Part shown: piece after piece, positions 33,238 to 63,302 of the stretch | How the letters are laid out: the number at the start of each line of letters is the position of its first letter | How positions within the stretch are numbered: position 1 is the first letter of the stretch | From: Dehalococcoidia bacterium | GTDB taxonomy: Bacteria > Chloroflexota > Dehalococcoidia > Lucifugimonadales > UBA3495 | Direction: 5' to 3' | DNA: 64,000 nucleotides | Assembly: GCA_965261195.1 (NCBI GenBank) | Contig: CBDHDC010000002.1 | Coordinates: forward strand, 35,266-99,265 | Translations under genes and position numbers: made by a program | Notes under the pieces: model-generated | The model's database searches: none | The model's input: only the letters and a program-made list of their open reading frames with translations | What the model was told of the DNA's origin: nothing

Positions 33238-33238
33238 C

Positions 33239-46266: not shown

Positions 46267-46294
46267 GGTTCCGATAAGTCGGCTTATGTCAACT
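46267..46294 (+). other. dif/Xer-like site a
   Basis: GGTTCCGATAA-GTCGGC-TTATGTCAACT, compared with E. coli dif GGTGCGCATAA-TGTATA-TTATGTTAAAT. Confidence 0.6.
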
Positions 46295-46521
46295 TTGACT
46301 TGGCGTGGTTGCTGGCTGAAATGGCTTTCGGACAGGCTTTCCCACCGGCGCCGGGACGCCCCGGGCCTGAAAGGTTCGGGGCCTGCATCCGGGTGGAGCG
46401 CCGGTGGGGTCGGTTGCAGAAAAGGGCGAAATGACAGTGCTAAGCGCCCGATCCAGTAGCCGAGTGAGCAAGCGGCTGTCCGCCCCAGAAGACTTGTGCT
46501 TCGCCACACGACGCCTCTGGT

Positions 46522-46809
46522 CTAACGCCTCTCTACAGCCCCCACTTTCTCACGGAGTTCCTTTCCGGCCTTGAAGAATGGCACCTTCTTGCAGGGAACC
46601 TGGACTGCGACGCCGGTCTTGGGATTGCGCCCTTGTCGGGCATTGCGGCTCCGGGTTCGAAAACTGCCGAAACCTCGCAGCTCCACTTTGTCCCCCTCCT
46701 GCAAAGTCTCGGTAATGCACGCGAGCAAAATGCCGACGATGGCTTCGGTCTGCCTTTTGGTAAGGTGGACTCTGGCGGCAACTCTTTCAGCGAGTTCTGC
46801 TTTTGTCAT
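46522..46809 (-). CDS. HU/IHF-family DNA-binding protein (IHF-beta-like)
   Basis: The translation runs MTKAELAERVA...VELRGFGSFRTRSRNARQGRNPKTGVAVQVPCKKVPFFKAGKELREKV. Confidence 0.9.
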   Translation of the reverse strand: MTKAELAERVAARVHLTKRQTEAIVGILLACITETLQEGDKVELRGFGSFRTRSRNARQGRNPKTGVAVQVPCKKVPFFKAGKELREKVGAVERR

Positions 46810-47019
46810 GTCTCCAGCCCCAATGAAGGAACACGTTCTGTATAGACAAGGCCGCCAACTAACTGCTCATCTTTTTCCGCGCCGAGCCATTCGTTCAACT
46901 TCGAGGCGTCGGCGCGGGTCGCAGACAGCATTGCGGCCGACATCTTGTAGCGCAGCGGTGCTGACAATCCGTGGCAGCGGCGGTCGTCCGGATCGCGTGC
47001 GGCGACCGCCGAACCTGGG

Positions 47020-50000
47020 TCATTCAATTGTCAGTTCAGGAAGGCCGCGCACAACCTCCATGGTCTCCAGGCTGACGGTGATGATCCGCAGGAACAGGTT
47101 GAGCGGATAGCGGGGGTCGCCGACGGTCTCGATTGCGTAGCGATTGGCGTCGTTAACGATCCCGCTCGCCTTGTCGGTCCTGACGCCCTGGCGTTCCATG
47201 ACCCAGGCGAGTGCGGGCTTGCCGTTGACGACGTATTCCCATGCTGCCTCGGGGATGTCGCGAATGGTGATGTGGGCGTTGTAGATTACCGTCGAGCGGT
47301 CCTTGTTTCTGCCCGATCCCGGATGCCGCATCTTTGTGACCCGGTACACCTCCTCGGGTGCTGTCATGAGCAGCTTGCCGCCGGTGTCGATGGTGGCCAG
47401 ATAGGGTTCAATCGACTCGTAGCCGACATGCAGTTCGCCGAGTCGCTTCCCGGCGTCCCGAAAGGCGCGATAGTCCTCGACCGGCTTCACGCAGGGGATA
47501 CGCGGCAACTCCTTGGAGAGGTTAGCCCGGAAGCGGCTGCGGTAGTCTTCGGAATGCAGAAGCCCATAGATGTAGTGGAAGATGTCCTCCCGACTGACAG
47601 ACTCCGTCGGGTATGCGGTACGAAAGTACTGAAGGCCGTAATCGCTGATGGCGTCGAGACGCCGGTAACCGGGAATGCGCTCTCCGAGCAGGTCAGCTTC
47701 GGCGTCATCGTTCCCTTTGTAAAGCCAGAATGGAAAGCACTGGCCCGTGTCGATTGTGTGCAGATTCGGCAAGGCGTCCATCATCAGCGCAGAAAATCCC
47801 GAGCGCCCACCCTTTCCCGTTAGCGCGATCACCCGGTTGGACAGTTCGGCGTTCGGGAAAACGCGGGGCATCTGATAGACCATCTCATTGAGGCGACGGC
47901 TGAAGAACTGCCATTGCTTCGCAAAGGGGCGATACACGCAGGGGACGAATACGCCATCGCTTTGTTGGAGTTCTTTCCCCTTTCGGACATCCTGCTTGAG
48001 AGAGCGGGTCCAGCTGATCCTGTTGGTATCGACGGTTACGAAGTCATCGATATTCGGTAGCGCACCTCCTGTGGGCTTTGCGGTTTCAGTCGCAATCTTC
48101 CAGCGCGCCATCTCATCGTTGTAGAACTCAATCGTTGATCCAATGTTTTCGGCCAGCACTGTCCGAGAAAAGTTGATGCACCAAGGGTCCCTGTTGGTGA
48201 CCACGCCGAGAGAGTAGTTGTCGAACAGAACGTCCCCGGCGTTGTCTTTCTTGTCGCCGATTCTCGTATAGACCTCGAAGCCCGCGTTGCGCTGATCCAG
48301 CCAGTCGCCATGCGAGTCGGGGGTAACTCTGGTCCATCCGTGGGCATCCTCGATTCCACGGACGCTGCCAAAGCACTTGACGATATCCAGCTTTTGTTTC
48401 CGGTCAAGATCGTCCCCGACGGCATGGAACAGAATGCGGCCCTGCTCCGAGGCATCAGGGTTCTTTACGAAGACCGTGATGGCGACCGGCGTTCGAGTGC
48501 CTTCGCCAAAAACATTGCCCCGTTCCCGCCTACGCCGTTCGCCTGAAGTGTATGCATCCCCGCGCAGGTGGAACACATGCAGGCTGGCGAACTCCTCGGC
48601 GAGGCACTTGCGCAATCCGTCCATTGCATTGCTGTCAAGCCAGCCGGCGTTGGTGACGTACGCCATCACCCCGGCCCTCCCGAGCCGATCACTGCCCCAG
48701 CGGATCGCACGGATGTAGCTGTCGTAGAGATTTTGCAACAAGGTGGCGTTCGAACGTTCCGCGTAGGTCGAGCGGATCCTTTGGTCCAGTCGCGCATAGG
48801 CCACGTTCTTGGCGTTGTCGTTTTCGCTCTTCTGGCCCGCGGAATAGGGCGGATTACTGATGATGACCCGGATGTTCGTCCCCTTCTGCCGCTCGCGCCG
48901 GTCGGTGTTGTTCTTCATGTAGAAGGACAGCTCGTCGTCGCCCTCGTGCAGGGCGAACGTGTCGGTCAGGCAGATGCCGGTGTAGGGAAGATAATCGGTG
49001 CGCTCGGCAACCGAGTGAAAGACCGTCTCGATGTTGATCGCGGCGATGTAATAGGCGAGCAGCACGATTTCGTTCGCGTGAATCTCCTCGCGGTACTTGC
49101 GTTCCAGGTCTTCAGGCGCGATGAGGCCCAATTGCAGCAGCCGGGTGATGAAGGTTCCCGTGCCGACGAAGGGGTCGAGGATGTGGACGCCTTTAGAGCC
49201 GAGCGTCTGGCCGAACTCCTCCTCCAGTGCCTTGTTCACCGAGCCGATGATGAAGTCCACGATCTCGACCGGCGTGTAGACGATGCCGAGCATCTGGGTC
49301 GTGCGCGGAAACGCGTCCCGGAAAAACTTGTCGTATAGCTCGACGATCAGGTTCTGCCGCGCCAGCGGATCAGTAATTCCTGCCGCGCGCCGGCGCACCG
49401 AGGCATAGAAGCCTTCGAGCGTCTTGGCTTCCCGCTCGATTTGCGTCTCGTCGATGACCGACAGGACCTCCGTCATCGCGACCGAGACCGGGTTCCTGTC
49501 GACGAAGGTATGGCCTTGGAACAGCGCGTCAAACACGGGGCGGGTGATCAGATGCTGGGCCAGCATCTCGATGGCGTCGTGCTCGGTGATGGATTCGTTG
49601 AGGTCGTCGCGGAGTTCCAGCAGGAAGTCCTGGAAGAACGACCGGGCATGGCTGTCCGGTTGTTGCACGAGGCCAGTGATTCGGGTGATATGACGTTCCG
49701 CAATCTCCGCCACGTCCTTCGCCCAGTCTTCCCAGTAGTCGCGCGTACCGCACTTCTCGACGATCTTCGCTATCACGGCGCGCGAAAAGTCGTCGATGAC
49801 CAGCGGCAAGGGCTCCTGGCGGTCGTCCTTGCCTTCGGAGTCGCCCGAGCCGCCCCGGCCGATCCCTGACCCACGCGCCAGGATACGGCTCGGCAGCTCT
49901 TCCACCTTTGCCGTTACCGCCTGGAGTTCGGCGTTGTCGACCGGCCGTCTGCCATCCACGATCGCGATGCGATCGCTGACATCCTGGCCGAGGCCGCCCT

Positions 50001-51924
50001 GGTTGATGACCGCGTCGAGCCTCTCGTCATGGGAACGGAGCGCGTTGAGAATTTGCCAGATGACGCGGTACTTTTCGTTGTCGCCGAGCGCCACGTCAGT
50101 AGGCACGCCCGGCGGGATGGCGACCGGCAGAATGACGTAGCCCATCCGTTTGCCGGGCGCCCGGCGCATCACCCGGCCCACCGCCTGCACGACATCGATC
50201 TGGCTGTTGCGGGGATGCAGGAACAGGACCGCGTCGAGAGCCGGCAGGTCAACGCCCTCGGTCAGGCATCGCGCGTTGCTCAGGATGCGGCATACATCGG
50301 CGCCCGCGTCCTCCTTGAGCCAGTCGAGCCTCTTGCCTCGCTCCCGGGCATTGTAGGTGCCGTCGACATGCTGCACCTCGCAGAACACACCGCTGCCTTC
50401 GGCGTCACTGCTTTCGAGCTGGAACTCCGCGACCACCTGCTCGAACTCGTCGCGGACCAGTTTCGAGCTCGCGATGCTCCTGCAGAACGCCAGGGCGCGG
50501 CGCATGGGACCCGAATCGTCCGCCGGTGTCTCCGTGAGGCCCGTCTTGGAAAGGGCCTTCCAGCAACCGACGATCTTCGTCGCGTCGTCCAGGACAAGCT
50601 CGCTGTCCGTGTCGGCTAGGCGCTTTTGTACCGCAGTGCTGACCTGCCCTTCGTCCATAGCCAAAACGATCACCCGGTAGTCCGTGAGAATGCCGCTCTC
50701 GACTGCCCGGGCAAAGCCGTGATGGAAGAGGACCTCGCCATAAAGAGCGGGGTCGTCCATGGAGGCCAGGACGGTCTGGGTGTCGCGCGCCTTCGACTTC
50801 GCGTTCTCGCCGTAGATGCGCGGCGTCGCTGTCATGTAGAGGCGCTTGCGGCCACGGATCACGTCGTTGTCGTGGACCTTCACGAAATTGGACTGGTCCT
50901 CGCCGGCGAAGGTTACGCCCGTGGTTCGGTGGGCCTCGTCGCAAACGATCAGGTCGAACTCGGGAAGGCCATGACTTGCCTGTGCGGCCGCGATCACCGA
51001 AATCGATTGGTAGGTGGCGAAGACGACACGCATCGAGCCGGCCTCTGTTGCGACGACCGCACGCGCGAGCGAAGCCGCGTCCGTCGTCGCCGGAAAGGCG
51101 AGATCGGTGACTTCGAGCTCGGCGACGTCATGCCTGCTGCGCCTCCGTTTGCCCACCTGGATATCCGAGCACACGGCAAAGGCGGTGAGCGGCAGAACTG
51201 CGTCGGCGCACCACTCGCGCACCGTCTGCGCCATCAGGGCGAGGGACGGCACCAGGAGCAGGACATGCCCGCCGGAACCCGCCAGTTCCTCGGCAATGCG
51301 CAGGCCGGTCAGGGTCTTTCCCGTCCCGCACGCCATAATCAGCTTGCCGCGGTCAGCCTCGGCCAGACCGGCCCGGACGGCCTCCAGCGCCTCGATCTGG
51401 TCCTGTCGCAGGGTTTTCGGCTTGGGGCGTACGATCTCGCCGGTCGCCGCGAACGCCGACCAGTCCACCTGACTCTCACGCAGGCCGCCCAGGCCGATCC
51501 GCGCGGTCGGGATTGTCTGGCCGTGCAGCATCATCTCGGCGTTGTCGCTCCACGGCACGTCGGTGGTCTCGACGATCAGCCGTTCGGCGAACGCATGCTT
51601 CGCCGAGGCGGAGATGAAGCTGTCGATGTCTTCCTTGCGGATACGCCGAAGGGCATCGAAGAACTTGCACTGGATCGCGGCGAGGCTGCCGTCATGCAAT
51701 GTTCCGACGAGATCGATCCCGGTGTCGCTCCGGTCCAGTTCCCGGCGGCGCGCCCAATCGGACCAGAGTTCAACGCGGGCGAAGCGCTTCGCCTGCACCG
51801 GATCGGCAACGAGCCATGCGGTGACCAGTTTCTCGAACGCGGTGCCCTTGTCGCGTTCGCTAATGGCGGCGGCCCGGTAGGACTCGAGAAGGTGATCCAG
51901 TGGACTCATCGCGGGCACCTCCAC
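47020..51924 (-). CDS. Type ISP (LlaGI-like) single-polypeptide restriction-modification enzyme, 1634 aa
   Basis: The N-terminus has an Mrr-like nuclease (GIDLVGTLHDGSLAAIQCKF). An SF2 ATPase follows (MACGTGKTLTG, VCDEAHRTTG), then an N6-adenine methyltransferase motif IV (ISNPPYSAGQ) and a long C-terminal target-recognition region. Confidence 0.9.
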   Translation of the reverse strand: MEVPAMSPLDHLLESYRAAAISERDKGTAFEKLVTAWLVADPVQAKRFARVELWSDWARRRELDRSDTGIDLVGTLHDGSLAAIQCKFFDALRRIRKEDIDSFISASAKHAFAERLIVETTDVPWSDNAEMMLHGQTIPTARIGLGGLRESQVDWSAFAATGEIVRPKPKTLRQDQIEALEAVRAGLAEADRGKLIMACGTGKTLTGLRIAEELAGSGGHVLLLVPSLALMAQTVREWCADAVLPLTAFAVCSDIQVGKRRRSRHDVAELEVTDLAFPATTDAASLARAVVATEAGSMRVVFATYQSISVIAAAQASHGLPEFDLIVCDEAHRTTGVTFAGEDQSNFVKVHDNDVIRGRKRLYMTATPRIYGENAKSKARDTQTVLASMDDPALYGEVLFHHGFARAVESGILTDYRVIVLAMDEGQVSTAVQKRLADTDSELVLDDATKIVGCWKALSKTGLTETPADDSGPMRRALAFCRSIASSKLVRDEFEQVVAEFQLESSDAEGSGVFCEVQHVDGTYNARERGKRLDWLKEDAGADVCRILSNARCLTEGVDLPALDAVLFLHPRNSQIDVVQAVGRVMRRAPGKRMGYVILPVAIPPGVPTDVALGDNEKYRVIWQILNALRSHDERLDAVINQGGLGQDVSDRIAIVDGRRPVDNAELQAVTAKVEELPSRILARGSGIGRGGSGDSEGKDDRQEPLPLVIDDFSRAVIAKIVEKCGTRDYWEDWAKDVAEIAERHITRITGLVQQPDSHARSFFQDFLLELRDDLNESITEHDAIEMLAQHLITRPVFDALFQGHTFVDRNPVSVAMTEVLSVIDETQIEREAKTLEGFYASVRRRAAGITDPLARQNLIVELYDKFFRDAFPRTTQMLGIVYTPVEIVDFIIGSVNKALEEEFGQTLGSKGVHILDPFVGTGTFITRLLQLGLIAPEDLERKYREEIHANEIVLLAYYIAAINIETVFHSVAERTDYLPYTGICLTDTFALHEGDDELSFYMKNNTDRRERQKGTNIRVIISNPPYSAGQKSENDNAKNVAYARLDQRIRSTYAERSNATLLQNLYDSYIRAIRWGSDRLGRAGVMAYVTNAGWLDSNAMDGLRKCLAEEFASLHVFHLRGDAYTSGERRRRERGNVFGEGTRTPVAITVFVKNPDASEQGRILFHAVGDDLDRKQKLDIVKCFGSVRGIEDAHGWTRVTPDSHGDWLDQRNAGFEVYTRIGDKKDNAGDVLFDNYSLGVVTNRDPWCINFSRTVLAENIGSTIEFYNDEMARWKIATETAKPTGGALPNIDDFVTVDTNRISWTRSLKQDVRKGKELQQSDGVFVPCVYRPFAKQWQFFSRRLNEMVYQMPRVFPNAELSNRVIALTGKGGRSGFSALMMDALPNLHTIDTGQCFPFWLYKGNDDAEADLLGERIPGYRRLDAISDYGLQYFRTAYPTESVSREDIFHYIYGLLHSEDYRSRFRANLSKELPRIPCVKPVEDYRAFRDAGKRLGELHVGYESIEPYLATIDTGGKLLMTAPEEVYRVTKMRHPGSGRNKDRSTVIYNAHITIRDIPEAAWEYVVNGKPALAWVMERQGVRTDKASGIVNDANRYAIETVGDPRYPLNLFLRIITVSLETMEVVRGLPELTIE

Positions 51925-52227
51925 TCAGTTGACTGCGCTGGGGATTCGACGTTGCGAATCGGAGAACCGAGACCCTCGTCGGCGATCGAATCGAAAAAGG
52001 CGGCGACCCGCGGCTCGGGCCGCGGCCGCATCATCTCGGAGACGACGTTCGTGTCTATCAGGGTATCCAATAGTAATGGAACAATTTTGGTTGTTAAGGG
52101 ATTCTGCCGCCCGCTGCCCGCAGCGGTCGTAGTCCCTTGCGCCGCAGCGCCGCTTCGATGTCGAAGTGAAAACGGCCGTAGACATTCTGATAAGGGTTAC
52201 TCTAGATCTCTGGGGTTTACCGAGTGA

Positions 52228-52255
52228 ACTTCGGATAAGGGCGGTTATGTCGCCT
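52228..52255 (+). other. dif/Xer-like site b
   Basis: ACTTCGGATAA-GGGCGG-TTATGTCGCCT. An extra left-arm-like ATTCTGATAA lies 35 bp upstream. Confidence 0.6.
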
Positions 52256-52308
52256 TTGGATGCACGCGCCATTGGTAGTAGTAATGAAAGCCCCTTGGAA
52301 AGACTACC

Positions 52309-52998
52309 TCAAAAGTGCGAGACCGAAACAATTTCGGCTATGTCCTGCAGCGTGCTTGTCTGTACTACGATTTTTTCTTCCTGTTTAGCGGGTTGTCCGA
52401 ACTCCCCGTATCCTTCGGGTTCAACTCCGCGATCTACATTTTCAACGCAGAAAGCGTTGTTGCGTCCGAAGAGAATTCTGTATTCCTGCTGGTGACTGTA
52501 CCCGGGGTCTTTTCGGGTTGCTATTTCCGCAGGGAAGGCGTGAACAACACCAAACGCCGAAGTATCGTAAGTTACCGGTTTTGCAATTCGCCAACCATCG
52601 TCTTTCCTGCCTTCCCATTCAGGTAATTCGGCCCATGGAGGGCATGCTCCTTTTATCCGATCAAAAAATCGTTTCGGATCTTTAATTACCACGACAAAGT
52701 TCGCCCCAAAGCACTTTGCCAAATCCGCAGACCGTTTTTGGCTGAGACAACATACGAAGATGTCATTGGCTTTTGCTGTTGAGACAAAATTATACCCTGA
52801 GAGATCAAAAGGTCGTCCCTGCGTGTGATTCCAGCCTCTTGCGGGAGCGGAAACGCGGGCCTCTCCTTTGTCGCTGCGTGCAGCATCATTCTCGAGTCTT
52901 TGGAAATGACCAAGGGTCTGAAACAGTATCTGCCCCCTCATCATTGTGTGGGCATGCTCGATACATGTTAGATATTTGTACAAGTACCTCGCAGGCAT
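52309..52998 (-). CDS. hypothetical protein, possibly DUF2971-like
   Basis: The N-terminal RYLYKYLTCIEHAHTMMRGQILFQTLGHFQRLENDAARSDKGE resembles the DUF2971 N-terminal pattern. Lower GC than the surroundings. Confidence 0.5.
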   Translation of the reverse strand: MPARYLYKYLTCIEHAHTMMRGQILFQTLGHFQRLENDAARSDKGEARVSAPARGWNHTQGRPFDLSGYNFVSTAKANDIFVCCLSQKRSADLAKCFGANFVVVIKDPKRFFDRIKGACPPWAELPEWEGRKDDGWRIAKPVTYDTSAFGVVHAFPAEIATRKDPGYSHQQEYRILFGRNNAFCVENVDRGVEPEGYGEFGQPAKQEEKIVVQTSTLQDIAEIVSVSHF

Positions 52999-53243
52999 AC
53001 ATCCTCCGGAACTTCCGACAAGACACTTTATGTCGCCTTCGGGGGGTCGGTTTCGGAAACGGGCCGCAGCGCCGCAATGCCGAGGCTATGCTTGTCGAGA
53101 CAGTGAGACAGTGGCGGGATCAAGTCGTGGACCTGCTACCGGAGCGCGCGGCTGACACTGCGGCGCATCGTCGAGGCAGGGCTTGAGCCCGGAGCCTCCT
53201 CCGCGAAAGGAAGGGTGAGGCTTCACCGGGTTGACAGGATGCC

Positions 53244-54530
53244 TTATGGGGCATCCTCGGGGTTCAGCTCGCGAAGCACTTGCTCCGCTCGGCTCTTGAT
53301 AACCGTGTTGTTAGCTTTCCGCGCCAATTCAAGCGCGGTTTCCAAGTCCTTCTGCCCCTCTGTGTTGAGGCCCGAAACGATCTTCCCAATGCCCCGATTG
53401 TAGTAGGCTTCAGGGTTGTCCGGCCGCAGGCGGATGGCCTCGTCGTAATCGGCAATGGCGTCGTCGAAACGGTTCTGCGCCTGCTTTACATTGCCCCGAT
53501 TGCTGTAGGCTTCAGGGTAGTCCGGTTTCAGACGGATGGCCTCGTCGTAATCGGCAATGGCGTCGTCGAAACGGTTCTGCGCCTGCTTCGCCTTGCCTCG
53601 ATTGTAGTAGGCCTGAGGGAGGTCCGGTTTTAGGCGGATGGCCTCGTCGCAATCGGCAATGGCGTCGTCAAATTGGCTCAGCGCCCACTTCGCATTGCAT
53701 CGGTTGTTGTAGGCTTTAGCATAGTCCGGTTTTAGGCGGATGGCCTCGTCGCAATCGGCAATGGCGTCGTCAAATTGGCTCAGCGCCCACTTCGCATTGC
53801 ACCGGTTGCTGTAGGCTGTAGCATAGTCCGGTTTCAGGCGGATGGCCTCGTCGCAATCGGCAATGGCGTCGTCAAATTGGCTCAGCGCCCACTTCGCATT
53901 GCATCGGTTGTTGTAGGCCGCAACATATTCCGGCTGCAGGCGGATCGCCTCGTCGTAAGCAAAAAGAGCCTGATGTGCGTTCTTTGTTTTCTCTTCCTCA
54001 GTACGCCTCTCTTGCAAAAGATATCCAACGGATAACCAAGCGCGGGCGGCCAACTGGGTGTCGATTCTTTCCGCCACATTGGCAATGGAGCGCCACTTTT
54101 CAATTGCCGCATCAATCTTTCCTTCGCGTTGCAAGCCTAAGGCATCGGCAACTGCCAAATCTAAAGGAGATAGAGTGGGGTTCCGCTGGGCCTCCAGAAC
54201 GGCTTCTTTAACTTGTTCAGTTTTATTAGGACTGGCGGCGTCTTCACTGGTTAGGCTCCGCCCTAGGGCAGCCTGTTGTTGTATCTCTTGCACGTCCCTG
54301 TCGAGCCTTATTTTCATCTCGTCGACGTAGTTCTGGGTTTCGGTTTCAAGTTTCTGAAATCTGGTGAAGCCCACGTAGCCGCCAATGACGACTACAATGC
54401 CAAAAAATGTAAGGATGAGGCCATTAACAGCCAGCCACCAGTTGATCGTGTTGGTTCTCGTATCTCGCAGTTCCCATCTGAGTTCGTTGATTTGGCGTTG
54501 TAATTCGACCTTGTCGGTGTCTTCGGCCAT
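53244..54530 (-). CDS. membrane-anchored tetratricopeptide-repeat (TPR) protein
   Basis: N-terminal transmembrane span (WWLAVNGLILTFFGIVVVIGGYVGF) followed by ~9 TPR units (AIADCDEAIRLKPDYA.AY.NRCNAKWALSQFDD). Confidence 0.85.
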   Translation of the reverse strand: MAEDTDKVELQRQINELRWELRDTRTNTINWWLAVNGLILTFFGIVVVIGGYVGFTRFQKLETETQNYVDEMKIRLDRDVQEIQQQAALGRSLTSEDAASPNKTEQVKEAVLEAQRNPTLSPLDLAVADALGLQREGKIDAAIEKWRSIANVAERIDTQLAARAWLSVGYLLQERRTEEEKTKNAHQALFAYDEAIRLQPEYVAAYNNRCNAKWALSQFDDAIADCDEAIRLKPDYATAYSNRCNAKWALSQFDDAIADCDEAIRLKPDYAKAYNNRCNAKWALSQFDDAIADCDEAIRLKPDLPQAYYNRGKAKQAQNRFDDAIADYDEAIRLKPDYPEAYSNRGNVKQAQNRFDDAIADYDEAIRLRPDNPEAYYNRGIGKIVSGLNTEGQKDLETALELARKANNTVIKSRAEQVLRELNPEDAP

Positions 54531-54577
54531 GGAATATTTCTCCGGTAATGAATCGGACGTTTAGCTGCCGCTTCTCA

Positions 54578-55295: not shown

Positions 55296-55475
55296 ATGAC
55301 CGAGCCCTGGCACGCGACCCTGTCGTGGGACAACCAGGCAAAGGTCTGGTACGTCTCGGAGACCAACTTTCGCGGCCTCGTCGCCGAGGCCTGCACCGCG
55401 CCGGCGCTACTCGCGAAACTCGAGTGCCTGGCTCCGGAGCTTTTCGAGCTCGACCTTCACCTTCTCGAGGACTGA
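55296..55475 (+). CDS. DUF1902-like small protein (59 aa)
   Basis: The translation is MTEPWHATLSWDNQAKVWYVSETNFRGLVAEACTAPALLAKLECLAPELFELD. It is below the ORF-track cutoff and ends 3 nt before the invertase start. Confidence 0.55.
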   Translation: MTEPWHATLSWDNQAKVWYVSETNFRGLVAEACTAPALLAKLECLAPELFELDLHLLED

Positions 55476-55478
55476 GCC

Positions 55479-56057
55479 ATGACCCGGACAATCGGCTACG
55501 CCCGGGTAAGCACCGCTGCGCAGGATCTGCAGCTGCAGCTCGATGCCCTGGCGGCGGCGGGGTGCGAGCCGGTGTTCACCGATCACGCCTCCGGAGCCAA
55601 GTCGAAGCGCCCGGGGCTCGACGCGTGCGTGGAAGAGCTCAAGGCCGGCGATACCCTGGTCGTCTGGCGCCTGGACCGCCTGGGGCGCTCGATGCCGCAC
55701 CTGGTCGGCCTGGTCGAGGGGCTGCTGCAGCGGGGCGTCGGCTTCCGGTCGCTCCAGGACGGCCGCATCGATACCACCACTGCGACGGGCGAGCTCATGT
55801 TTCACGTATTCTCGAGCCTGGCGCAGTTCGAGCGGCGGCTTATACAAGAGCGAACCACCGCGGGCCTGACAGCTGCACGTGCACGCGGCCGCCGCGGCGG
55901 CCGCCGGCCGATAACCGGCGCCGATCCGCGCGTCCAGGCTGCCAAACGCCTGAACCAAGACCGCAACCTGGGGATCGACGAAATCTGCAAGACGCTTGGG
56001 ATCTCCCGGTCGACGTTCTACCGGTATCTGGCGCTGGCAGATGGGGTCCAGAAGTGA
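55479..56057 (+). CDS. serine recombinase, Hin/Gin/Pin-type DNA invertase
   Basis: IGYARVSTAAQDLQLQLDAL...LVVWRLDRLGRS... with the C-terminal HTH ICKTLGISRSTFYRYL. Intact at 192 aa. Confidence 0.9.
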   Translation: MTRTIGYARVSTAAQDLQLQLDALAAAGCEPVFTDHASGAKSKRPGLDACVEELKAGDTLVVWRLDRLGRSMPHLVGLVEGLLQRGVGFRSLQDGRIDTTTATGELMFHVFSSLAQFERRLIQERTTAGLTAARARGRRGGRRPITGADPRVQAAKRLNQDRNLGIDEICKTLGISRSTFYRYLALADGVQK

Positions 56058-56190
56058 ACAGACTCCATTAACCGGTGGCAGGAATCAGGGGCAAGGTCAA
56101 ATGTTATACTACGCCGATGATTGACAGAACATCTACACGCAGACCAGTGCGACGGCGATGTGATCCCGCTCGGTCTGTCGCCGATCCAGC

Positions 56191-57870
56191 GTGGGCTTCC
56201 AGACTGGTACTGCGTCCGGCCACCCAAGTGAAAGTACTATTAGGACCCTCACCTTGCGATTAAAATCAGCGCACATTAAGAAGTTCAAGCGATTCGTCGA
56301 TCTGACGATTAATGACCTGCCTGTCGATGCCAAGCTAGTCGTCCTCTTGGGCCCGAACGGCTGTGGTAAGTCCTCTTTGTTCGACGCATTCCAAAGACAC
56401 CTCAAAGTGAACCAATTCTTCGGAATGAGTGACGAATTCATAAGATACTACCGCCGTGCAACACCAGAGGATGTAACGGAAGCGGAAGAGGTGAGCTTAG
56501 ACTTTCACGGTGAGAATCCCACGTCCCCGGATGACCTGAAGAGAAGTCTCTACGTTCGTTCTGCTTACAGACACGATCCATCGTTCCAAAACACGACGAT
56601 TCAACAACAACCGGATGTACTCGACAGGCATGCGGTGCGCCGGCTAATCGACACCGATCAAACCGTTCAGAGCAACTACGAAAGGATTATCTGGCGCCTT
56701 CTTGGCAAGGTTACGACCCCTGGATTGACGACCGACGAAATCATCCAAGACACAATCGGTGACCTCCAGAAATCGATGGAGACCGTGTTTGGAGACATTC
56801 AACTTGACGCACTTGTTGCGGCCCGGGACACCGGCACGTTCACGTTCACCAAGCAAGAGTCTCGAAACTTCCTTTACGAAAACCTTTCAGCTGGAGAAAA
56901 GGCGGTTTTCGATCTGTTACTGGACGTCATCATAAACAAGGCCTCATTCAACGACTCTCTCTATTGCGTGGATGAACCAGAAGCACACCTGAACACCAAG
57001 GTACAAAGTACGCTCCTGAGAGAGTTGTACCGGCAACTTCCCGGGAACTCGCAGCTTTGGCTCGCAACTCACTCCATTGGGATAGTGAGAGCAGCTCAAG
57101 AAATTCTTGCAGAGCATCCCGGACACGTTGTCTTTCTGGACATGGGTTTCCGCAGCGACGGTGAGCCTCGGGATTACGATCACCCACAGGTAATTGAACC
57201 AGCGGAACCGGATCACGAATTCTGGGTGCGCCACTACTCCGTGGCCTTAGACGACATGGCAGGACTCCTGGCACCCGACTGCATTGTACTCTGTGAGGGG
57301 TCCGCGGCAGACGATGATCCAGGACTTGACGAGGCTTGCTACAACAAAATCTTCGCACGGGAGTTTCCCCGGACCCGCTTTGTCTCGGTCGGTCCTGCGA
57401 CTGTGGTGGAGAAACGGATGGGCGACCTTCTCCCTCTTATAGAGCGAATTATCAGTGGCACATCCGTTCTGCGGTTTCGGGATAGAGACGACTTGACGCA
57501 AGAAGAGATCGAGGACAAGCATGCTCAGGGTGTAAGCGTCATGTCCGCATACAGGAACATCGAGTCCATGCTGCTCTCTGATGGCGTATTGTGGAGGCTC
57601 TGCGACACTCATGGTAAGTCTGACTGCTTCGACGCCATACGAACGGCCCGAGACAATGCGCTCGGTCATGCCAGTGGCCAACATGCAATCGACGATCTTA
57701 AGCCTGCCGCCCAAGCTGTGCATCAGGCCGCCAAAACTCAACTGATGCTATCACGTGCCGGCGAATCGAAGCATTCCTTCATGCGTGACGTGCTAGCGCC
57801 GCTGATTACGGCCGATACGCCAGAGTACCAAGAGCTAAAGCGCGACATCTTCACGACCTTCGTTTCCTGA
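56191..57870 (+). CDS. ABC-type ATPase fused to a DUF4435/TOPRIM-like domain (OLD-family / PARIS AriA-AriB-fusion-like); start uncertain
   Basis: Walker A is LLGPNGCGKSSLFDA, the signature is LSAGEKAVF, Walker B is LYCVDEPEAHL and the H-loop is LWLATHS. The C-terminal IVLCEGSAADDDPGLDEACYNKIF matches the DUF4435 (h)VEG..D...Y pattern. Confidence 0.75.
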   Translation: MGFQTGTASGHPSESTIRTLTLRLKSAHIKKFKRFVDLTINDLPVDAKLVVLLGPNGCGKSSLFDAFQRHLKVNQFFGMSDEFIRYYRRATPEDVTEAEEVSLDFHGENPTSPDDLKRSLYVRSAYRHDPSFQNTTIQQQPDVLDRHAVRRLIDTDQTVQSNYERIIWRLLGKVTTPGLTTDEIIQDTIGDLQKSMETVFGDIQLDALVAARDTGTFTFTKQESRNFLYENLSAGEKAVFDLLLDVIINKASFNDSLYCVDEPEAHLNTKVQSTLLRELYRQLPGNSQLWLATHSIGIVRAAQEILAEHPGHVVFLDMGFRSDGEPRDYDHPQVIEPAEPDHEFWVRHYSVALDDMAGLLAPDCIVLCEGSAADDDPGLDEACYNKIFAREFPRTRFVSVGPATVVEKRMGDLLPLIERIISGTSVLRFRDRDDLTQEEIEDKHAQGVSVMSAYRNIESMLLSDGVLWRLCDTHGKSDCFDAIRTARDNALGHASGQHAIDDLKPAAQAVHQAAKTQLMLSRAGESKHSFMRDVLAPLITADTPEYQELKRDIFTTFVS

Positions 57871-58114
57871 GCGGTCAACTCGACGTCGGCCGCACGCGGG
57901 AGCTTGCCGACTGGATGCGGGCTGTAGGCTTAGTCCTGTGACGTACGTTGCCGGTTCTCACGACTCTGGTTTCATTCTCAGATAATGTGAGCCGAAAACG
58001 GCGACGTTCTCAAGCACAACGCAGGTTGCCGATAACGGCGTCGAAGCCGCCTTCGGGACGGGCGTTCTGCCAGTCCTGTCAGACGCCGGGGAATGTTCTC
58101 AAGTCGATACATCT

Positions 58115-58142
58115 AGTTCCGATAAGCGGCATTCTGTTAACT
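58115..58142 (+). other. dif/Xer-like site c
   Basis: AGTTCCGATAA-GCGGCA-TTCTGTTAACT. It ends 8 bp before the brnA stop. Confidence 0.55.
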
Positions 58143-58149
58143 TTGGCAT

Positions 58150-58458
58150 CTATGCCGTCCGCCCCTGCTTCGCTTCCATATAGCTGCGCAGAACTGCATT
58201 GATGCGCGTCTGATAACCGCGCCCCTGAGACTTGAAGAACTCCAGCACATCCCGGTCAATGCGCACAGAAATTGCCTGCTTCGAAGGCGGCATCACGACT
58301 CTGGCCTGCGACCAGTCGAACTCGCCTTCGTCTGGGTCCACTTCCGGTTCCAGACCAGCTTCTTGCTCCCGCCGCAGCCTTTCCCAATCTGTCTGGCCTT
58401 CACCCTTGCGGCGGATCGCCTCCTCCAATGACATACGCGTGATAGTCTCGTCGTTCAT
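58150..58458 (-). CDS. brnA: BrnA antitoxin (CopG/RHH-like)
   Basis: The translation contains KQAISVRIDRDVLEFFKSQGRGYQTRINAVLRSYMEA. Confidence 0.85.
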   Translation of the reverse strand: MNDETITRMSLEEAIRRKGEGQTDWERLRREQEAGLEPEVDPDEGEFDWSQARVVMPPSKQAISVRIDRDVLEFFKSQGRGYQTRINAVLRSYMEAKQGRTA

Positions 58459-58690
58459 TTGTTCGTGCCCGTCTTGCAGTAATAATTCTTCGGCGGCCGT
58501 TCCGGATCGTGTAGACCACTGCGATTTCGATTCCGTCCACTAATCCGACTGCGAGCCACCGCTCTTCCACCGTCCCCGTCGACAGTGTTTCCCGAAACGG
58601 ACCCTCGAAAATCCGGACGGCGTCCCTAAAGTCGATGCCACGTCGGTCTATGACTAAACGCCGTTTGCTCTCGTCCCACTCGAACTCCAT
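58400..58690 (-). CDS. brnT: BrnT toxin (DUF497)
   Basis: MEFEWDESKRRLVIDRRGIDFRDAVRIFEGP...IITARRA..NER. The likely start is M10 of the ORF-track entry. Confidence 0.85.
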   Translation of the reverse strand: MEFEWDESKRRLVIDRRGIDFRDAVRIFEGPFRETLSTGTVEERWLAVGLVDGIEIAVVYTIRNGRRRIITARRARTNERRDYHAYVIGGGDPPQG

Positions 58691-59131
58691 AGGACTTTCC
58701 CGTTGGAAGTGCGACATTCAGAACCCTTTCTGTTCTGCGCGTTTTGCATCCTGCCATATCTGTTCTCCTTGTTTTAAGTTTCGTTTATCGTTGTCAAGCA
58801 GGTGCTTCCGGCCATCCCTCACATAACAGGTGGATATCCGTAGTATGGATAAATGTATACACAAATTTAGCCTTGAGGGCAACCCTCTTCTCGCAAAACG
58901 TCAATCCGCGGATCGAGACTTTGCTCAGGCGTCGAGACCCTCGCATAGCCAAATCAAAGGGACTTCATTTCGGCACTGATTCCCGACTATCCATGATGTC
59001 CATATAAGGCCCCTCAATTGCATATCCCAACCGTACCAGGTATATGACACGCAAATTATGCCATTCTGCGTTAATCTAAGACCTTGCTAAAGATGGCACG
59101 TAGAGCCTACCTCTTACGGACACCCCAGCAG

Positions 59132-59709
59132 ATGACAGCAACCCTGATCGGCTACGCCCGTTGTTCCACGGACAAACAGGACCTGACGGCACAGAGGCAG
59201 GCACTCGCCGAACTCGGCGTCGCACCGGATCGCATCTACATGGACAAGGGTCTGACCGGCACCAACCGCGCCCGGCCCGGCCTGGATCAGGCCATGGCCG
59301 CAGTGCGGAAGGGTGACACCCTGGTGGTGCCGAAGCTGGACCGCCTGGCGAGATCGGTTCCCGATGCCCGCCACATCGCCGATCAACTGCAGGCCAAGGG
59401 GGTGAAGCTCGCCTTGGGCCACAATATCCATGACCCCAGCGACCCCATGGGCAAGATGTTTTTCAATATCCTGGCCACCTTTGCCGAGTTCGAGGCCGAT
59501 CTCATTCGGATGCGCACGTGAAGGGATGGCCATACCCGTGCCAAGGGCAAGTTGCGCGGCAAGCAGCCCAAGCTCTCCGAAAAGCAGCAACGGGAACTCT
59601 GCCGCATGCACGCCACCGGCGATTATTCCATCGGCGACCTGGCTGAAGTCTTCGCCGTATCGAGACCCACCGTCTACCGGACGCTCAGCCGCGCCGCTGC
59701 TTCCTCATG
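59132..59709 (+). pseudogene. serine recombinase (resolvase), copy 2: in-frame TGA after compensating -2/-1 deletions
   Basis: About 95% identical to copy 1 over 29393-29918. It has CGCACGTGAAGG versus CGCACGCGTGAAGG in copy 1, which creates TGA at 59519-59521. A further 1-nt deletion 20 nt later restores the frame, and the HTH tail ...VSRPTVYRTLSRAAASS is present. Confidence 0.8.
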
Positions 59710-59872
59710 AATCGATCCCTACCGGTGCCATGTAGCGCCAAACGAATCGTGCCATGTAGCGCTGAAAGTCACAATCAGGAGGTCTGAAGAGGGCAGGAAA
59801 CCGTACCTTTGGAAGCCGTCTCTAAAGCGAACGTTAAAGAGATGGCCAAGGCAGCCCGCAAAGGAGATATCC

Positions 59873-60055
59873 TTGGCTATGCCCGCTGACCAGGATGTTT
59901 TCGGCCAGGAAGACCGGTTACGGCAGGCCGTCGCCATTCGCGTCTTCATCGACGTGATCTCGGGCCGGCAGTTCGAGCGCCCGGGGCTGAGCGCGCTCAT
60001 CGACCATGCCCGCCCCGGCGACTGCCTCTGCGTCACCCGTCTCGACCGCCTAGGG
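59873..60055 (+). pseudogene. serine recombinase N-terminal fragment
   Basis: VFIDVISGRQFERPGLSALIDHARPGDCLCVTRLDRLG, after which similarity ends. It abuts IRc. Confidence 0.6.
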
Positions 60056-60112
60056 CAACGACCTACAGACTCGCCAAGGCGCCGTGCTGAAACCGCACGG
60101 CCAGTTTACCCC

Positions 60113-60150
60113 CTTAGCGTAATTCCAGGTACAAACCTTGCGATGACGCC
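60113..60150 (-). repeat. 38-bp Tn3-family terminal inverted repeat, IRc (same orientation as IRb)
   Basis: The reverse complement is GGCGTCATCGCAAGGTTTGTACCTGGAATTACGCTAAG, with the ACGCTAAG inner end seen in Tn21-type IRs. Confidence 0.75.
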
Positions 60151-60267
60151 AACTACGCCTCGATTTTCGCTGTCCGGGTGAGCGGGGCGCCAACTGGCTG
60201 ATTCCTCGAAAACCAACGCCGCCCGCCGTGTGCCTATTGGTCCTGCAGAATGAAGTCGCTGGGAGCG

Positions 60268-62199
60268 TCAACCACTGACAGGCTTGGGTGCCGCCGGTCC
60301 TAACTCCGTGAGGAAGGGACTTGCATGCAGATGGGCTAAGCCGTTCCGAGTGAATGCCGGTTGAATGCCAGCCTTGTGCACGTCGGCAATTGACATTCTT
60401 TGTGAATAGGTAATGATTAAAGTTCCTGGCTTGTTATGGTCTTTTTCCGCTTTGACGCGTGTAATTCCGACATAGAAAAGTCGGCGCTGTTCTTCAGCTT
60501 CCGCTTTCTGCTCAGCTAGACTTTTGTCAGGGTCCGGTTGGCGAGGCAAGAGCCCTTGTACGCACCCACAAACGAAAGTCACAGGTGCACTTAAGCCTTT
60601 GCTCTTGTGCAGACTCATAATGCGTACATCTTTGATCTCGTCTGGCACTTCCGGTTTGGAGATCACATTCGACAGTTCGGAGAGAAACTCACGCTTGCCC
60701 GCTTCACCGACCTCTTTCAAAACTTGCATTGCAATTTGGCGGAGAGCCCGTACCTTGTCGTCAGCTTCGGGAAGCAGGTGGTTAACAACGGCAGCTATAT
60801 CCGGAAGGCCTTCCAGCCTTTGGAGTTTCTCCCGTATTTCGCGAAAACGCTCAACAAGTACACCTGTGTACGGAATGGCTATAGTGCTCGCAGCGAGTTG
60901 TTCCAGTGCCTCCCAAGGTGTCAGACCATTCGACTCACAATGACTGCGGAGCCGACCATAGGCAGCAGCCCGCCAATCTCCGGCCCCAAATCCCAGAAGC
61001 CACCGAAGCGCAACACGATCCTCCGGATCGACAAAGAGTTTCAGAAACGCAAGTTGCTGCTGAGCGTCCTCCTCGTCCAATTCTCCCTCAGCATAATATG
61101 ATTTAACTGGAATACTGTCGCTGACCAGCCTTTCGTACAATGGAGTACCAATTACGCGGCGTGGTGCGAGAACAAGGATATCGCCTGGTGGAATATCTTT
61201 GTTTCTAACCATATCAACGATCCTGTCCGCCACACCACCAACTTCATTCCCTAACGATCTGTACTGAATGATTTGAACATCGCCGGGCCCATTCTGGGGC
61301 CGTGGAACAATGGTATGAATTGCTGGGCGATTTCGATTGTAAGCAATTAAACTAGCCGCCATTTCAGTGACGGTGGTCGGGCATCGTCGGCACTCATCCA
61401 AGGTGAAATCCCCGACATCCGGCTTAATATTGACCCACTCCCGAATGCCGTCTGGATGAGCGTGCCTGAAGCTGTAAATGGATTGATCATCATCACCCAC
61501 AATACAGTTTTCCGAACTGGGACCGAGGAGGTCGATGATACCCTGTTCTGCCTTGTTCAAATCCTGGTACTCATCCACAAGGACATGCGAAAATTCATCA
61601 TGCTCCTGCGCGGCGGGGTTGTTTCTCAAGTACTGATACAGATAAGGAATCACTTCGCCAATAAGCATTGCACGATGAAAGTTGAGCCAAGATCGCAAAT
61701 CACTTTCGAATAACTGGTCTTCCTCTGACTGAATGTATCCTGGTTCTTCGTGCTGCAAGCGCGCCCAAGCAGCCTCATAAGCTTTGATGAGCTTGTTGAC
61801 TTTCCTGACACCGCCATGTGCTTTTTTTTGGTCAGCAATCAGCGGTTTAATCTCAAAATCATTCAGCGGTCGGGGAATACGTCCTGTTGCCTCAAGAACA
61901 TGATTTCTACTCAGCATTTGAAGGGCCAAACTATGGAGGGTAACGCCTTTCATTTGCTCACACCCAGGAACTCCCATGCCCGCCAATTCACGGTGAAGGT
62001 CTCCAGCGGCGACGCGAGTAAAGGTGACGGGAAGGATTGACTCGGGCTCAACTCCATTTTCTAGAAGCCGGGCGACACGCCGTTTCATGGCGAAGGACTT
62101 CCCAGTGCCTGGGCCTGCAACCACTCTGATATGTTGTTTCATGGACGAAGCAATTTGGTATGCGGTGGTTCTGGAATCTAAATTGTCATTCCATGGCAT
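60268..62199 (-). CDS. UvrD/Rep-family (SF1) helicase, low GC
   Basis: The translation contains VVAGPGTGKSFAM, VLVDEYQDLN, and C-terminal SLHKSKGLSAPVTFV...FYVGITRV. Confidence 0.85.
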   Translation of the reverse strand: MPWNDNLDSRTTAYQIASSMKQHIRVVAGPGTGKSFAMKRRVARLLENGVEPESILPVTFTRVAAGDLHRELAGMGVPGCEQMKGVTLHSLALQMLSRNHVLEATGRIPRPLNDFEIKPLIADQKKAHGGVRKVNKLIKAYEAAWARLQHEEPGYIQSEEDQLFESDLRSWLNFHRAMLIGEVIPYLYQYLRNNPAAQEHDEFSHVLVDEYQDLNKAEQGIIDLLGPSSENCIVGDDDQSIYSFRHAHPDGIREWVNIKPDVGDFTLDECRRCPTTVTEMAASLIAYNRNRPAIHTIVPRPQNGPGDVQIIQYRSLGNEVGGVADRIVDMVRNKDIPPGDILVLAPRRVIGTPLYERLVSDSIPVKSYYAEGELDEEDAQQQLAFLKLFVDPEDRVALRWLLGFGAGDWRAAAYGRLRSHCESNGLTPWEALEQLAASTIAIPYTGVLVERFREIREKLQRLEGLPDIAAVVNHLLPEADDKVRALRQIAMQVLKEVGEAGKREFLSELSNVISKPEVPDEIKDVRIMSLHKSKGLSAPVTFVCGCVQGLLPRQPDPDKSLAEQKAEAEEQRRLFYVGITRVKAEKDHNKPGTLIITYSQRMSIADVHKAGIQPAFTRNGLAHLHASPFLTELGPAAPKPVSG

Positions 62200-62339
62200 T
62201 TAATGCATTCCTCCGAGCCTTTTGCAAAACTGTGGAGTCGTCGGGAATTATTGAGGGTAAGAGGTTGACTTGAACGGGACAGGCTGTCTTTGCTTCATGT
62301 CATGTGTTGTGCGACCACCACATGAAGGAGAAAACGGCC

Positions 62340-63029
62340 ATGTCCCTGCGTACGATCCTGTCGAAATACGGCTTCGCCTTGCAACGAGAGCTTTTCCCCA
62401 CGCTCGAAGAAGAACTCGGTCCCTTGGGCGAGCGCTACGAGTTATTCGTCACGGTGCTCGGGTTCGTGCCGGTTGAGCCATTCCTGACGTGCTGGCGTGG
62501 TTTGCCGGGGCGCCCGCAGGCGGATCGGGCCGCGCTGGCACGAGCCTTTGGCGCCAAGGCGGTGTTCGCCATCTCGACCACCCGCGCGCTCGTTGAGCGC
62601 CTTGTCATCGACCGGCCGCTGCGTCGCCTGTGCGGCTGGAGCCAGGGCGCGGCGGTCCCCAGCGAGGCGACCTTGTCGCGGGCCTTCAGCGACTTCGCTG
62701 ACAGCGCCTTGCCAAGCCGCCTGCACGAGGCGCTGATCGACAAGACCCTGCGCGATCATCTGGTCGGCCACGTCTCACGCGATTCGACGGCGATCTTGGG
62801 GCGCGAGAAGCCAGCCCCGAAGCCGCACCAAGCGGCTACGCCGAAACGCCGCCGCGGGCGACCGCGCAAGGCTGAACAACGACTGAACAAGGCGCCCCGA
62901 AGGCTGGCGCGCCAGTCCAACATGACCCTGCCGGAGATGCTCGCCGACCTGCCACGCACCTGTGATGTTGGCGTCAAGCGGGACGCCAAGGTGATCGGCC
63001 CCCACAAAGTAGTCCAACCTGAATGTTAG
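62340..63029 (+). pseudogene. IS5/IS4-superfamily transposase, N-terminal (DUF772-like) part only
   Basis: The translation runs MSLRTILSKYGFALQRELFP...GLPGRPQADRAALARAF..KAVF...RRLCGW...RRRGRPRK. There is no DDE domain before the stop. Confidence 0.65.
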
Positions 63030-63102
63030 TTCATGTTCAATGCTGGCTCCAATGAATACCTGACAGGGCTTGATCGAACCCCCTGGATTGTCCACAGGCC
63101 GG

Positions 63103-63261
63103 CTAGGCTGTCCAGTCGGCCGCGTAGCCAAGCGAGGCATGCGGCCTCGCCCTGTTGTAGTGCCGCCGCCAACTCTCAATCACAACCTGTGCCTCCCGCA
63201 GCGTGTAGAAAATCTCACCATTGAGCAACTCGTCACGCAACCGCGCATTGAAACTCTCGAC
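63103..63261 (-). pseudogene. IS3/IS481-type transposase C-terminal fragment (52 aa)
   Basis: The minus strand translates to VESFNARLRDELLNGEIFYTLREAQVVIESWRRHYNRARPHASLGYAADWTA*. The fragment is cut 13 bp from dif-like site d. Confidence 0.75.
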
Positions 63262-63274
63262 AGTAGGGACCTCA

Positions 63275-63302
63275 ACTTCGCATAAGGGTGGTTATGTCGC
63301 CT
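63275..63302 (+). other. dif/Xer-like site d
   Basis: ACTTCGCATAA-GGGTGG-TTATGTCGCCT. The left arm matches the XerC arm of dif (GGTGCGCATAA) at 8 of 11 positions. Confidence 0.6.

Follow-up and report, generated by a model that had tools for sequence, protein, structure and literature searches.

Directly oriented dif-like sites delimit exchanged defense gene modules on an apparent plasmid of a putative Entotheonella-like host

Among the described systems, the closest to the locus analyzed here are the dif modules of Acinetobacter, which are reportedly bounded by pdif (or xrs) sites on Rep_3 plasmids and are associated with the work of Blackwell and Hall and the model of Balalovski and Grainge. 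Plasmid Xer sites of Acinetobacter recombine only with sites having closely related spacers, form cointegrates, and require xerC; excision was seen for pairs of sites in direct orientation whose spacers were identical or nearly so (PMC11705084, PMC13141974). We analyzed a 64,000-bp stretch of DNA (assembly GCA_965261195.1, contig CBDHDC010000002.1, positions 35,266–99,265 of the forward strand; hereafter, the window), which carries an array of 28–29-bp sites resembling dif, the chromosomal target of XerC and XerD. The original prediction, made from the sequence of the window, regarded such an array of directly oriented, defense-loaded modules as not described before; the dif modules of Acinetobacter, with their spacer-dependent Xer recombination, are nevertheless a known relative (PMC11705084, PMC13141974). 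Sister contigs and related loci are designated below by the letter L and a number.

Dif-like sites and module exchange at them

The array comprised seven sites, all of them on the plus strand and in intergenic DNA, where they divided blocks of genes. Six were located in the window: site a (46267–46294, GGTTCCGATAA-GTCGGC-TTATGTCAACT), site b (52228–52255, ACTTCGGATAA-GGGCGG-TTATGTCGCCT), site f (53011–53038, ACTTCCGACAA-GACACT-TTATGTCGCCT), site e (54578–54606, ACTTCCGATAA-GCCTTCA-TTCTGTAAACT, with a spacer of 7 nt), site c (58115–58142, AGTTCCGATAA-GCGGCA-TTCTGTTAACT), and site d (63275–63302, ACTTCGCATAA-GGGTGG-TTATGTCGCCT). The seventh and weaker one, site g (TGTTCTGATAA-TCGATT-ATATGTAAACT), was found about 350 bp past the window end (L046:7824). 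One more site, ACTTCGGATAA-GCGGCA-TTCTGTCAACT on the plus strand, ends 6 bp before the first base of the window in sister contigs, and its conserved right flank (CCGCGCCGTTGCTGGGCGAAACGC...) occupies positions 1–130 (plus strand). The original prediction gave the coordinates, strand, and sequences of sites a, b, e, c, and d correctly; its total of five was too low, since at least seven sites belong to the array, with site f and site g added, besides the flank of the off-window left site.

A consensus search allowing up to 3 mismatches recovered four of the five originally noted sites together with site f and gave no matches in 100 dinucleotide shuffles. Scanning of both strands of the 64 kb for two arms separated by 5–8 nt revealed exactly six good sites (a, b, f, e, c, and d) and nothing comparable outside them.

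The consensus arms of the array sites were ACTTCCGATAA and TTATGTCAACT. Nineteen of 22 arm positions matched the confirmed dif of Bacillus subtilis (ACTTCCTAGAA-TATATA-TTATGTAAACT), and the elements CCGATAA and TTATGTCAA were common to the array consensus and the predicted dif of Frankia alni (both dif sequences are from PMC3025954). Two imperfectly symmetric arms of about 11 bp, ending in ATAA and TTAT, with a spacer of 6–8 bp between them were present in all seven array sites and in 54 unique sites of related DNA; ATAA and TTATGT were nearly invariant in the position counts. The predicted dif-like architecture and arm sequence were therefore borne out, the layout being 11-6/7-11.

The sites were also similar in their immediate surroundings. 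Each of them was followed by TT(T/C)G, and most were preceded by CA. Sites b and d coincided in 25 of 28 positions; outside the site, their similarity was limited to TTG on the right and a single base on the left, instead of the approximately 10 bp per side claimed earlier. Spacers of adjacent array sites were all different. Sites a and e, and partly sites b and d, also had in common a stretch of about 100 bp adjoining the right arm on its right side (GCGYCGTTGCTGGNCGAAAC ... CCCCACC ... GGTGGGAC). This type-A flank occupied positions 46295–46410 at site a and 54607–54720 at site e (both plus strand), and copies from different cassettes were 83–100% identical over approximately 100 bp. Type-B flanks were terminator hairpins of the first gene after the right arm. 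The type-A flank had no match in Rfam, its folding gave −3.2 kcal/mol with one covarying pair, and no consensus fold was obtained; its interpretation as RNA was rejected, with neither an Rfam match nor a consensus structure in its favor. A 108-aa open reading frame (ORF) without a family match (45951–46277, plus strand) extends into the left arm of site a, where its TAA stop is located. The short-read contig L001 stops 1 bp to the left of site b.

Evidence for module exchange was provided by comparison with related contigs, which had been proposed as a test in the original prediction: homology broke exactly at the sites. An identical BrnA protein was encoded in at least 22 contigs, and the unit brnT-brnA-GCGGCA-TTCTGTTAACT was constant in ten loci, in the window, and in L048. 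To the left of site c, the DNA of sister contigs was unrelated in at least 10 ways; the left arm itself varied (ACTTCC, AGTTCC, TGTTCC, CCTTCT, ACTTCT), and all megablast homologies ended within it. Site c always kept the spacer GCGGCA, and the near-identical DNA around its variants had 93–99.7% identity. At the off-window left site, L060 and L051–L059 were approximately 100% identical beginning with the right arm and further to the right, and the DNA to the left was unrelated. The cassette of site e, with its 7-nt spacer, CM_2 gene, and recombinase gene, recurred in another context in L050, where homology ended 3 bp to the left of the site. The spacer of site a and 140 bp of its right flank recurred at a chromosomal locus of Entotheonella (L020:2199), with homology starting at the site. 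Discrete modules in varying contexts, with breaks at the sites, were thus found for sites c, e, and a and for the off-window site. These data point to exchange between sites with the same spacer, that is, to classes of partner compatibility.

In L050, a complete gcvT-H-P1-P2 operon with its leader (4382–8689) was located between the cassette containing site e, CM_2, and the resolvase gene, on one side, and an insertion sequence (IS) remnant, on the other. In L133, a complete related chromosome, the gcv operon had different neighbors on both sides, and no dif-like site was present within 21 kb. Clean presence or absence of an array next to gcvT was considered and dropped, as L050 and L133 differed on both sides.

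A survey set of 618 kb, composed of the window, variant contigs, and Tectomicrobia loci, contained 54 unique sites, whereas three shuffles of the same DNA contained none. Among 39 distinct adjacent pairs, 34 had the same orientation, with a spacing from 55 bp to 9 kb; the five oppositely oriented pairs were all more than 4.9 kb apart. The direct orientation noted originally therefore applies to the whole array but is not absolute in related contigs. The G+C content of the spacers was 72%, and 35 of 41 spacers of 6 nt started with G. Spacers of 7 nt, a length tolerated by Xer sites and not by serine recombinase sites, were found in 13 of 54 sites. Spacers formed classes: GCGGCA (14 contexts), GCGCTT, ACCATT, GCGGTA, GGGCGG, GTCGGC, and CCCTGCG recurred in sites that differed on both flanks.

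Some cassettes of the survey were very short (L052, 14612–14973; L029, 854–1110). One of 49 bp contained a terminator hairpin alone; another, of 229 bp, contained a small Cys-rich, zinc-ribbon-like ORF and was 97% identical between the plasmid family and a metagenome-assembled genome of Tectimicrobiota, the site on one side of this shared cassette having a different spacer. An IS630-like terminal repeat (tggcactctgtgacagctatgttgttactgggcc) adjoined dif-like sites in L020 (6446–6483), L043 (~3340–3395), L029 (~830–860), and L050 (4023–4060), and in L029 it cut the left arm after ACTT. It recalls the IS1202-family elements, which target pdif sites in Acinetobacter (PMC10132070).

The distribution of related sites was analyzed by a pattern scan with TTCSSAYAAGNNNNNTTMTGTNNNCTTYG using one genome per species. 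Of 43 stretches detected, approximately 14 belonged to Entotheonella/Tectimicrobiota. Outside this group, the loci came from many phyla and each contained one site only, in most cases with an AT-rich spacer (GATGTA, GATATA), which is the pattern expected for ordinary chromosomal dif; in metagenomes of the Joint Genome Institute, all 62 matches were singletons. Tectomicrobia loci had 2–4 sites per 8 kb, with GC-rich spacers, and these loci occupied four dispersed positions in chromosome OZ244252.1. Entotheonella TSY1 and DD2 each contained one such site at homologous loci, the arms being identical and the spacers AT-rich (L004, GATATA; L028, GGAGTA). On the basis of this comparison of loci, these two are probably the host dif.

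Proposed mechanism and alternative explanations

It is probable that the sites are Xer-type recombination sites with spacers setting the compatibility of partners, and that the modules move between replicons by means of them. Host XerCD is the most economical candidate for the enzyme, because the site arms coincide with the dif consensus of several phyla and the arrays contained no linked enzyme. A site would consist of an XerC-like arm, a spacer of 6–7 nt, and an XerD-like arm. As the arms appear to copy the host dif, the housekeeping XerC and XerD should be able to bind them, while the GC-rich spacers, being unlike the AT-rich spacer of dif, would prevent recombination between the modules and the chromosomal site. 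By analogy with Acinetobacter, recombination should be limited to sites whose spacers are identical or almost so; different spacers on neighboring sites would then make a head-to-tail array stable against deletion. A crossover with a same-spacer site on another replicon would give rise to a cointegrate, which a second crossover, at a different compatible pair, would resolve with a block of genes exchanged; owing to the uniform orientation, this second event would be resolution and not inversion. We infer the participation of XerCD, the compatibility set by spacers, and this two-step route from the sequences and by analogy. The cassettes appear to be self-contained, with a gene usually directed towards the right arm and ending in a terminator or in the conserved flank, and carry restriction, abortive-infection-type, and toxin–antitoxin genes as well as genes of unknown function. 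The plasmid represented by the window probably has two direct GCGGCA sites, the off-window site and site c, which could split or fuse replicons; this would fit the sizes of circular contigs, 70, 105, and 117 kb. The cassette array of the original prediction, probably driven by Xer, stands insofar as modules are exchanged at the sites; the data do not point to free excision of single cassettes, because neighboring spacers all differ.

Several observations weigh against this explanation. The dependence on XerCD is a prediction from sequence, and the host xerC and xerD genes were not located. Binding of XerCD alone leaves unexplained the conserved flank of the right arm, CA before the 28-mer, and TT(T/C)G after it. 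The data included no directly observed cointegrate or excised circle. The junction of L060 versus L056 joins different spacers, GTCTTCA and GCGGCA, for which strict spacer identity provides no explanation, and homologous recombination in the conserved 100-bp flank could look alike. An intact tyrosine recombinase of 307 aa, belonging to another family, is encoded in the window, and this protein or the FimB-like proteins of sister contigs could be the true enzyme. Finally, many rearrangements in the region occurred at res sites of serine recombinases, so that its mosaicism does not come wholly from the dif-like sites.

The 307-aa tyrosine recombinase (16432–17355, minus strand), the only intact enzyme of this type in the window, was found by the Pfam scan (Integrase_1 and Phage_int_SAM_2), whereas the motif search H.LR[HRK][ST] missed it; all catalytic motifs were present, with HGLRHAYA as the motif of this type. 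Its N-terminal domain was weakly similar to those of XerC and XerD, and no solved structure matched the protein by sequence. A paralogous fragment with the N-terminal part only (5711–6145, minus strand) was truncated by a TnpB/IS605-type element (4142–5236), and only two close copies of the 144-aa integrase fragment were found. FimB-like recombinases of approximately 200 aa were encoded in L045, L062, and L070, and their best solved relatives were XerA, XerC-like, and XerD structures. The dif-like sites could be substrates of one of these element-encoded enzymes and form an integron-like platform with the enzyme acting in trans; the conserved bases and flank outside the 28-mer, hinting at recognition beyond the XerCD footprint, are in favor of this unlikely version. 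At the same time, the 307-aa gene belongs to the plasmid backbone, at least 16 kb away from any site and 29 kb from the array. Its homologues detected by tblastn were confined to the plasmid backbone; none was present in the 12 array loci of chromosomes or in the 15 variant loci surrounding sites c, d, and e. The FimB-like genes were not adjacent to sites either, and no tyrosine recombinase gene adjoined the sites at any array locus. Moreover, arms coinciding with the dif consensus of several phyla fit XerCD better than a divergent integrase.

Alternatively, the array could be a fossil of serial integrations at a dimer-resolution site by elements similar to integrative mobile elements exploiting Xer (IMEX), with hybrid and mostly inert sites and with mosaicism produced by res, IS, and homologous recombination. 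Serial integration yields direct orientation, neighboring spacers differ as they do in hybrid attL and attR, rearrangements mediated by res and IS are abundant, and one site in L029 is cut by an IS end. Nevertheless, we regard this history as improbable: at least 10 left partners of site c in almost identical DNA imply recent and repeated use, no array site has a dif-type AT-rich spacer that could serve as a functional target, several dispersed arrays are present in one chromosome, and some cassettes (55–260 bp) are too small to be autonomous elements.

Quite improbable is the production of the breaks by RecA-type homologous recombination between dispersed repeats, the 28-mers and their flanks being terminator-linked or repetitive extragenic palindromic (REP)-like elements. 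The similarity of type-A flanks between cassettes, the hairpins of type-B flanks, and the different spacers joined in the L060/L056 junction agree with it. However, the partners of site c shared the 28-mer alone, with unrelated left contexts up to the arm, and such homology is too short for efficient RecA exchange; the strict 11-6/7-11 layout with dif arms is not expected of REP elements, and the orientation bias was strong.

Small serine recombinases of the resolvase/invertase type are numerous in this DNA. Resolvase genes occurred approximately once per 5 kb in sister contigs, and a conserved gene of a 192-aa serine recombinase was located within the arrays of the window, L020, L043, L039, L029, and L050, in every case in the same orientation as the sites. 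A crossover sequence of the adjacent serine recombinase (59036–59052, plus strand; ccaggtat|atgacacgc) was found approximately 90 bp upstream of the resolvase start, with half-sites of the TGTCCG type. Homology breaks mapped to it, and, judging by the sequences, it behaves as a res site, that is, a class of rearrangement junctions independent of the dif-like sites. Other breakpoints away from the dif-like sites (59092–59098, 59345/6, and the repeat 29364–29918/59102–59654) mapped to small serine recombinase genes. The unit resolvase–brnT–brnA had a second sharp boundary at GAAAGTCACA (59764–59773), 60 bp past the resolvase stop, at the end of a tandem motif (L061, 8680–9420). The action of these serine recombinases on the dif-like sites, in spite of their presence within the arrays, is hardly credible and was ruled out because they have res sites of their own, where separate homology breaks occur, and because the spacers of dif-like sites vary in length (6 or 7 nt) and sequence, with non-identical central bases, which is incompatible with a fixed 2-bp crossover and with the fixed length, conserved central dinucleotide, and position beside the gene typical of res and hix sites.

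The 550-bp resolvase-gene repeat (29364–29918 versus 59102–59654) was 93% identical and marked rearrangement points. In L045 (1–397/398–2270), position 30063 of the window was joined directly to 41764, inverted relative to the array; this contig lacks the restriction cluster of Dcm, HATPase, Z1, DUF4420, and AIPR genes.

Replicon, host, and cassette cargo

The window looks like a part of a plasmid because ParA, ProQ/FinO, and ParE are encoded in it; this plasmid is apparently circular, with a size of about 105 kb. Locus L046, from the ENA contig ERZ25068833:ctg57189_6x_c (104,692 bp), was 100% identical to positions 50268–64000 and extended 8.2 kb beyond the window; we take the suffix _c in the contig name, given by the assembler, to denote a circular contig. 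Backbone and module DNA was 89–97% identical to several loci in OZ244252.1, a Candidatus Entotheonella chromosome. This identity, together with the taxon bias of the pattern scan, suggests an Entotheonella-like host (Tectomicrobia). Megablast of the region 44–64 kb against PLSDB gave weak matches only, to Type ISP genes.

Recognizable defense or toxin–antitoxin genes were present in four of the six cassettes, and not in each module, as was originally proposed. The cassette between sites a and b encoded an HU/IHF-like protein (46522–46809) and a Type ISP/IIG restriction–modification enzyme (47020–51924), both on the minus strand. The sites delimit gene modules as predicted, but the proposed module from b to e is split in two by site f. 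The first part contained a gene of a 229-aa protein without a family match (52309–52998, minus strand); its suggested relationship to DUF2971 was undetectable by Pfam (E up to 1) and by BLASTP against the DUF2971 cassette genes of L064 and L065. The second part encoded a 428-aa protein with TPR repeats (53244–54530, minus strand). Between sites e and c, the CM_2 gene (54798–55094) and a small DUF1902-like ORF (55240–55419) were encoded on the minus strand, and a serine recombinase (55479–56057) and an AriAB/OLD-like ATPase (56254–57870) on the plus strand.

In the cassette between sites c and d, the genes of the BrnA antitoxin (58150–58458, minus strand) and BrnT toxin (58400–58717, minus strand) were followed by fragments of resolvase genes (59132–60181, plus strand), a UvrD-type, GajB-like helicase gene (60268–62199, minus strand), and IS debris. 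The latter included a DUF772 transposase fragment (62304–63029, plus strand) and a C-terminal fragment of an IS3-type transposase (ESFNARLRDELLN...RPHASLGY; minus strand, to ~63264), which begins 11–13 bp to the left of site d, as was noted originally. The stop codon of brnA (58150–58152) is indeed close to site c, with 7 bases between it and the end of the site (58142), instead of the 8 bp reported. The last cassette, closed by site g, contained a 67-aa ORF and a SoFic-like Fic gene, which continues past the window end (63436–64000, plus strand). The first gene after a right arm was usually transcribed towards that arm.

Defense-like genes were also found among the variable neighbors of site c in sister contigs: HEPN-Toprim, OLD-like, AAA with S8 peptidase, DUF4238, and CoiA-like. 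Exact-protein look-ups of the TPR, ATPase (with two start codons), IHF, and 192-aa recombinase proteins found none of them on record. The Fic gene at the position corresponding to that just past the window end was truncated in L045 (8090–8125) and in L049 and fused to ATATGTAAACTTTG and a type-A flank. This fusion is a right half-site lacking the left arm, produced either by an event at a secondary site or by deletion.

A further defense island without a dif-like site occupied approximately 19 kb to the left of site a (27551–45988). It contained genes of AbiEi/AbiEii, a Dcm methylase with a sigma-70/ankyrin protein, HATPase_c_3, Z1, DUF4420, AIPR, an HNH protein, and DUF7663. In the region 8000–24000, all long ORFs were on the minus strand, the GC skew was very strong (+0.25 to +0.32), internal duplications were present (12350–13781 versus 13804–15214; 22845–23334), and the recombinase was the sole ORF with a Pfam match. 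This block could be a one-directional backbone, e.g., a transfer leading region.

The 28-mer provides a simple sequence handle for delimiting cassettes and marks the genes of the 229-aa, TPR, and CM_2 proteins, as well as many genes of unknown function in sister contigs, as candidate defense genes. The natural spacer classes offer a direct test bed for the control of Xer partner choice by the spacer.

Comparison with known systems

In the dif modules of Acinetobacter, the closest known system, the boundaries of gene modules are likewise formed by 28-bp sites of the XerC/XerD type, whose spacers vary, and partners are set by spacer identity, as may also be the case here. Cargo rich in toxin–antitoxin genes, including those of the brnTA type, serine recombinase genes, empty modules, and insertion sequences at or beside the sites are common to both. 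The differences are as follows. In Acinetobacter, C/D and D/C sites alternate and modules are flanked by inverted sites, whereas direct orientation prevailed and no alternation was found in our arrays. The Acinetobacter modules reside on small plasmids and are linked to antibiotic resistance, while in the putative host of another phylum, Tectomicrobia, they occupy large plasmids (70–117 kb) and chromosomes and carry mainly phage-defense systems. Many sites described here also have the conserved flank of about 100 bp beside the XerD-like arm. Module shuffling at Xer sites has so far been treated largely as a peculiarity of Acinetobacter plasmids linked to antibiotic resistance; its signs in an unrelated uncultured phylum suggest that defense islands are recurrently built and exchanged through hijacking of the universal system of dimer resolution.

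IMEX arrays (CTX-phi, TLC-phi, and VGJ-phi in Vibrio cholerae; the gonococcal genetic island) also have direct dif-like repeats flanking the inserted DNA, spacers different from that of dif, and housekeeping Xer exploited for integration, as is presumed for our sites. In contrast to IMEX, which are integrated at a single functional dif and keep a working dif at one end, no dif-type spacer was found in or beside the array, and the arrays were located on plasmids and at four positions of OZ244252.1. Their cassettes can be as short as 55–800 bp and lack replication or phage functions.

Small, co-oriented, mostly single-gene cassettes arranged head to tail, each ending in a recombination site, resemble those of integrons, and the toxin–antitoxin and defense cargo is similar to that of sedentary chromosomal integrons. 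Unlike integrons, the arrays had neither intI nor attI next to them (DUF7663 and HNH genes are located to the left of site a), and the cassettes had terminators of their own and no common promoter. The site core is of the double-strand type and 28–29 bp long, as opposed to the folded attC of 57–141 nt; the interpretation of the sites as attC was ruled out by the absence of R'/R'' boxes, fold, and IntI.

A Xer core with an adjacent accessory sequence of approximately 100–180 bp is also characteristic of the plasmid multimer-resolution sites cer and psi. Their accessory DNA adjoins the XerC arm and is bound by PepA with ArgR or ArcA, whereas the conserved flank of our sites adjoins the XerD-like arm; in contrast to the array sites, a plasmid has only one cer or psi.

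A functional parallel may be drawn with engineered cassette exchange by heterospecific lox or FRT sites, where same-orientation sites with different spacers are stable in cis and exchangeable with a partner bearing the same pair; that system is artificial and depends on Cre or Flp. It is conceivable, though still tentative, that Tectomicrobia possess a general gene-cassette system without a dedicated integrase, in which co-oriented dif copies serve as address labels, GC-rich spacers, possibly with the accessory flank, as the addresses, and XerCD assembles, stabilizes, and trades defense and toxin–antitoxin cassettes among plasmids and chromosomal arrays. Such a system would be a third natural cassette platform, besides integrons and the dif modules of Acinetobacter, and akin to recombinase-mediated cassette exchange.

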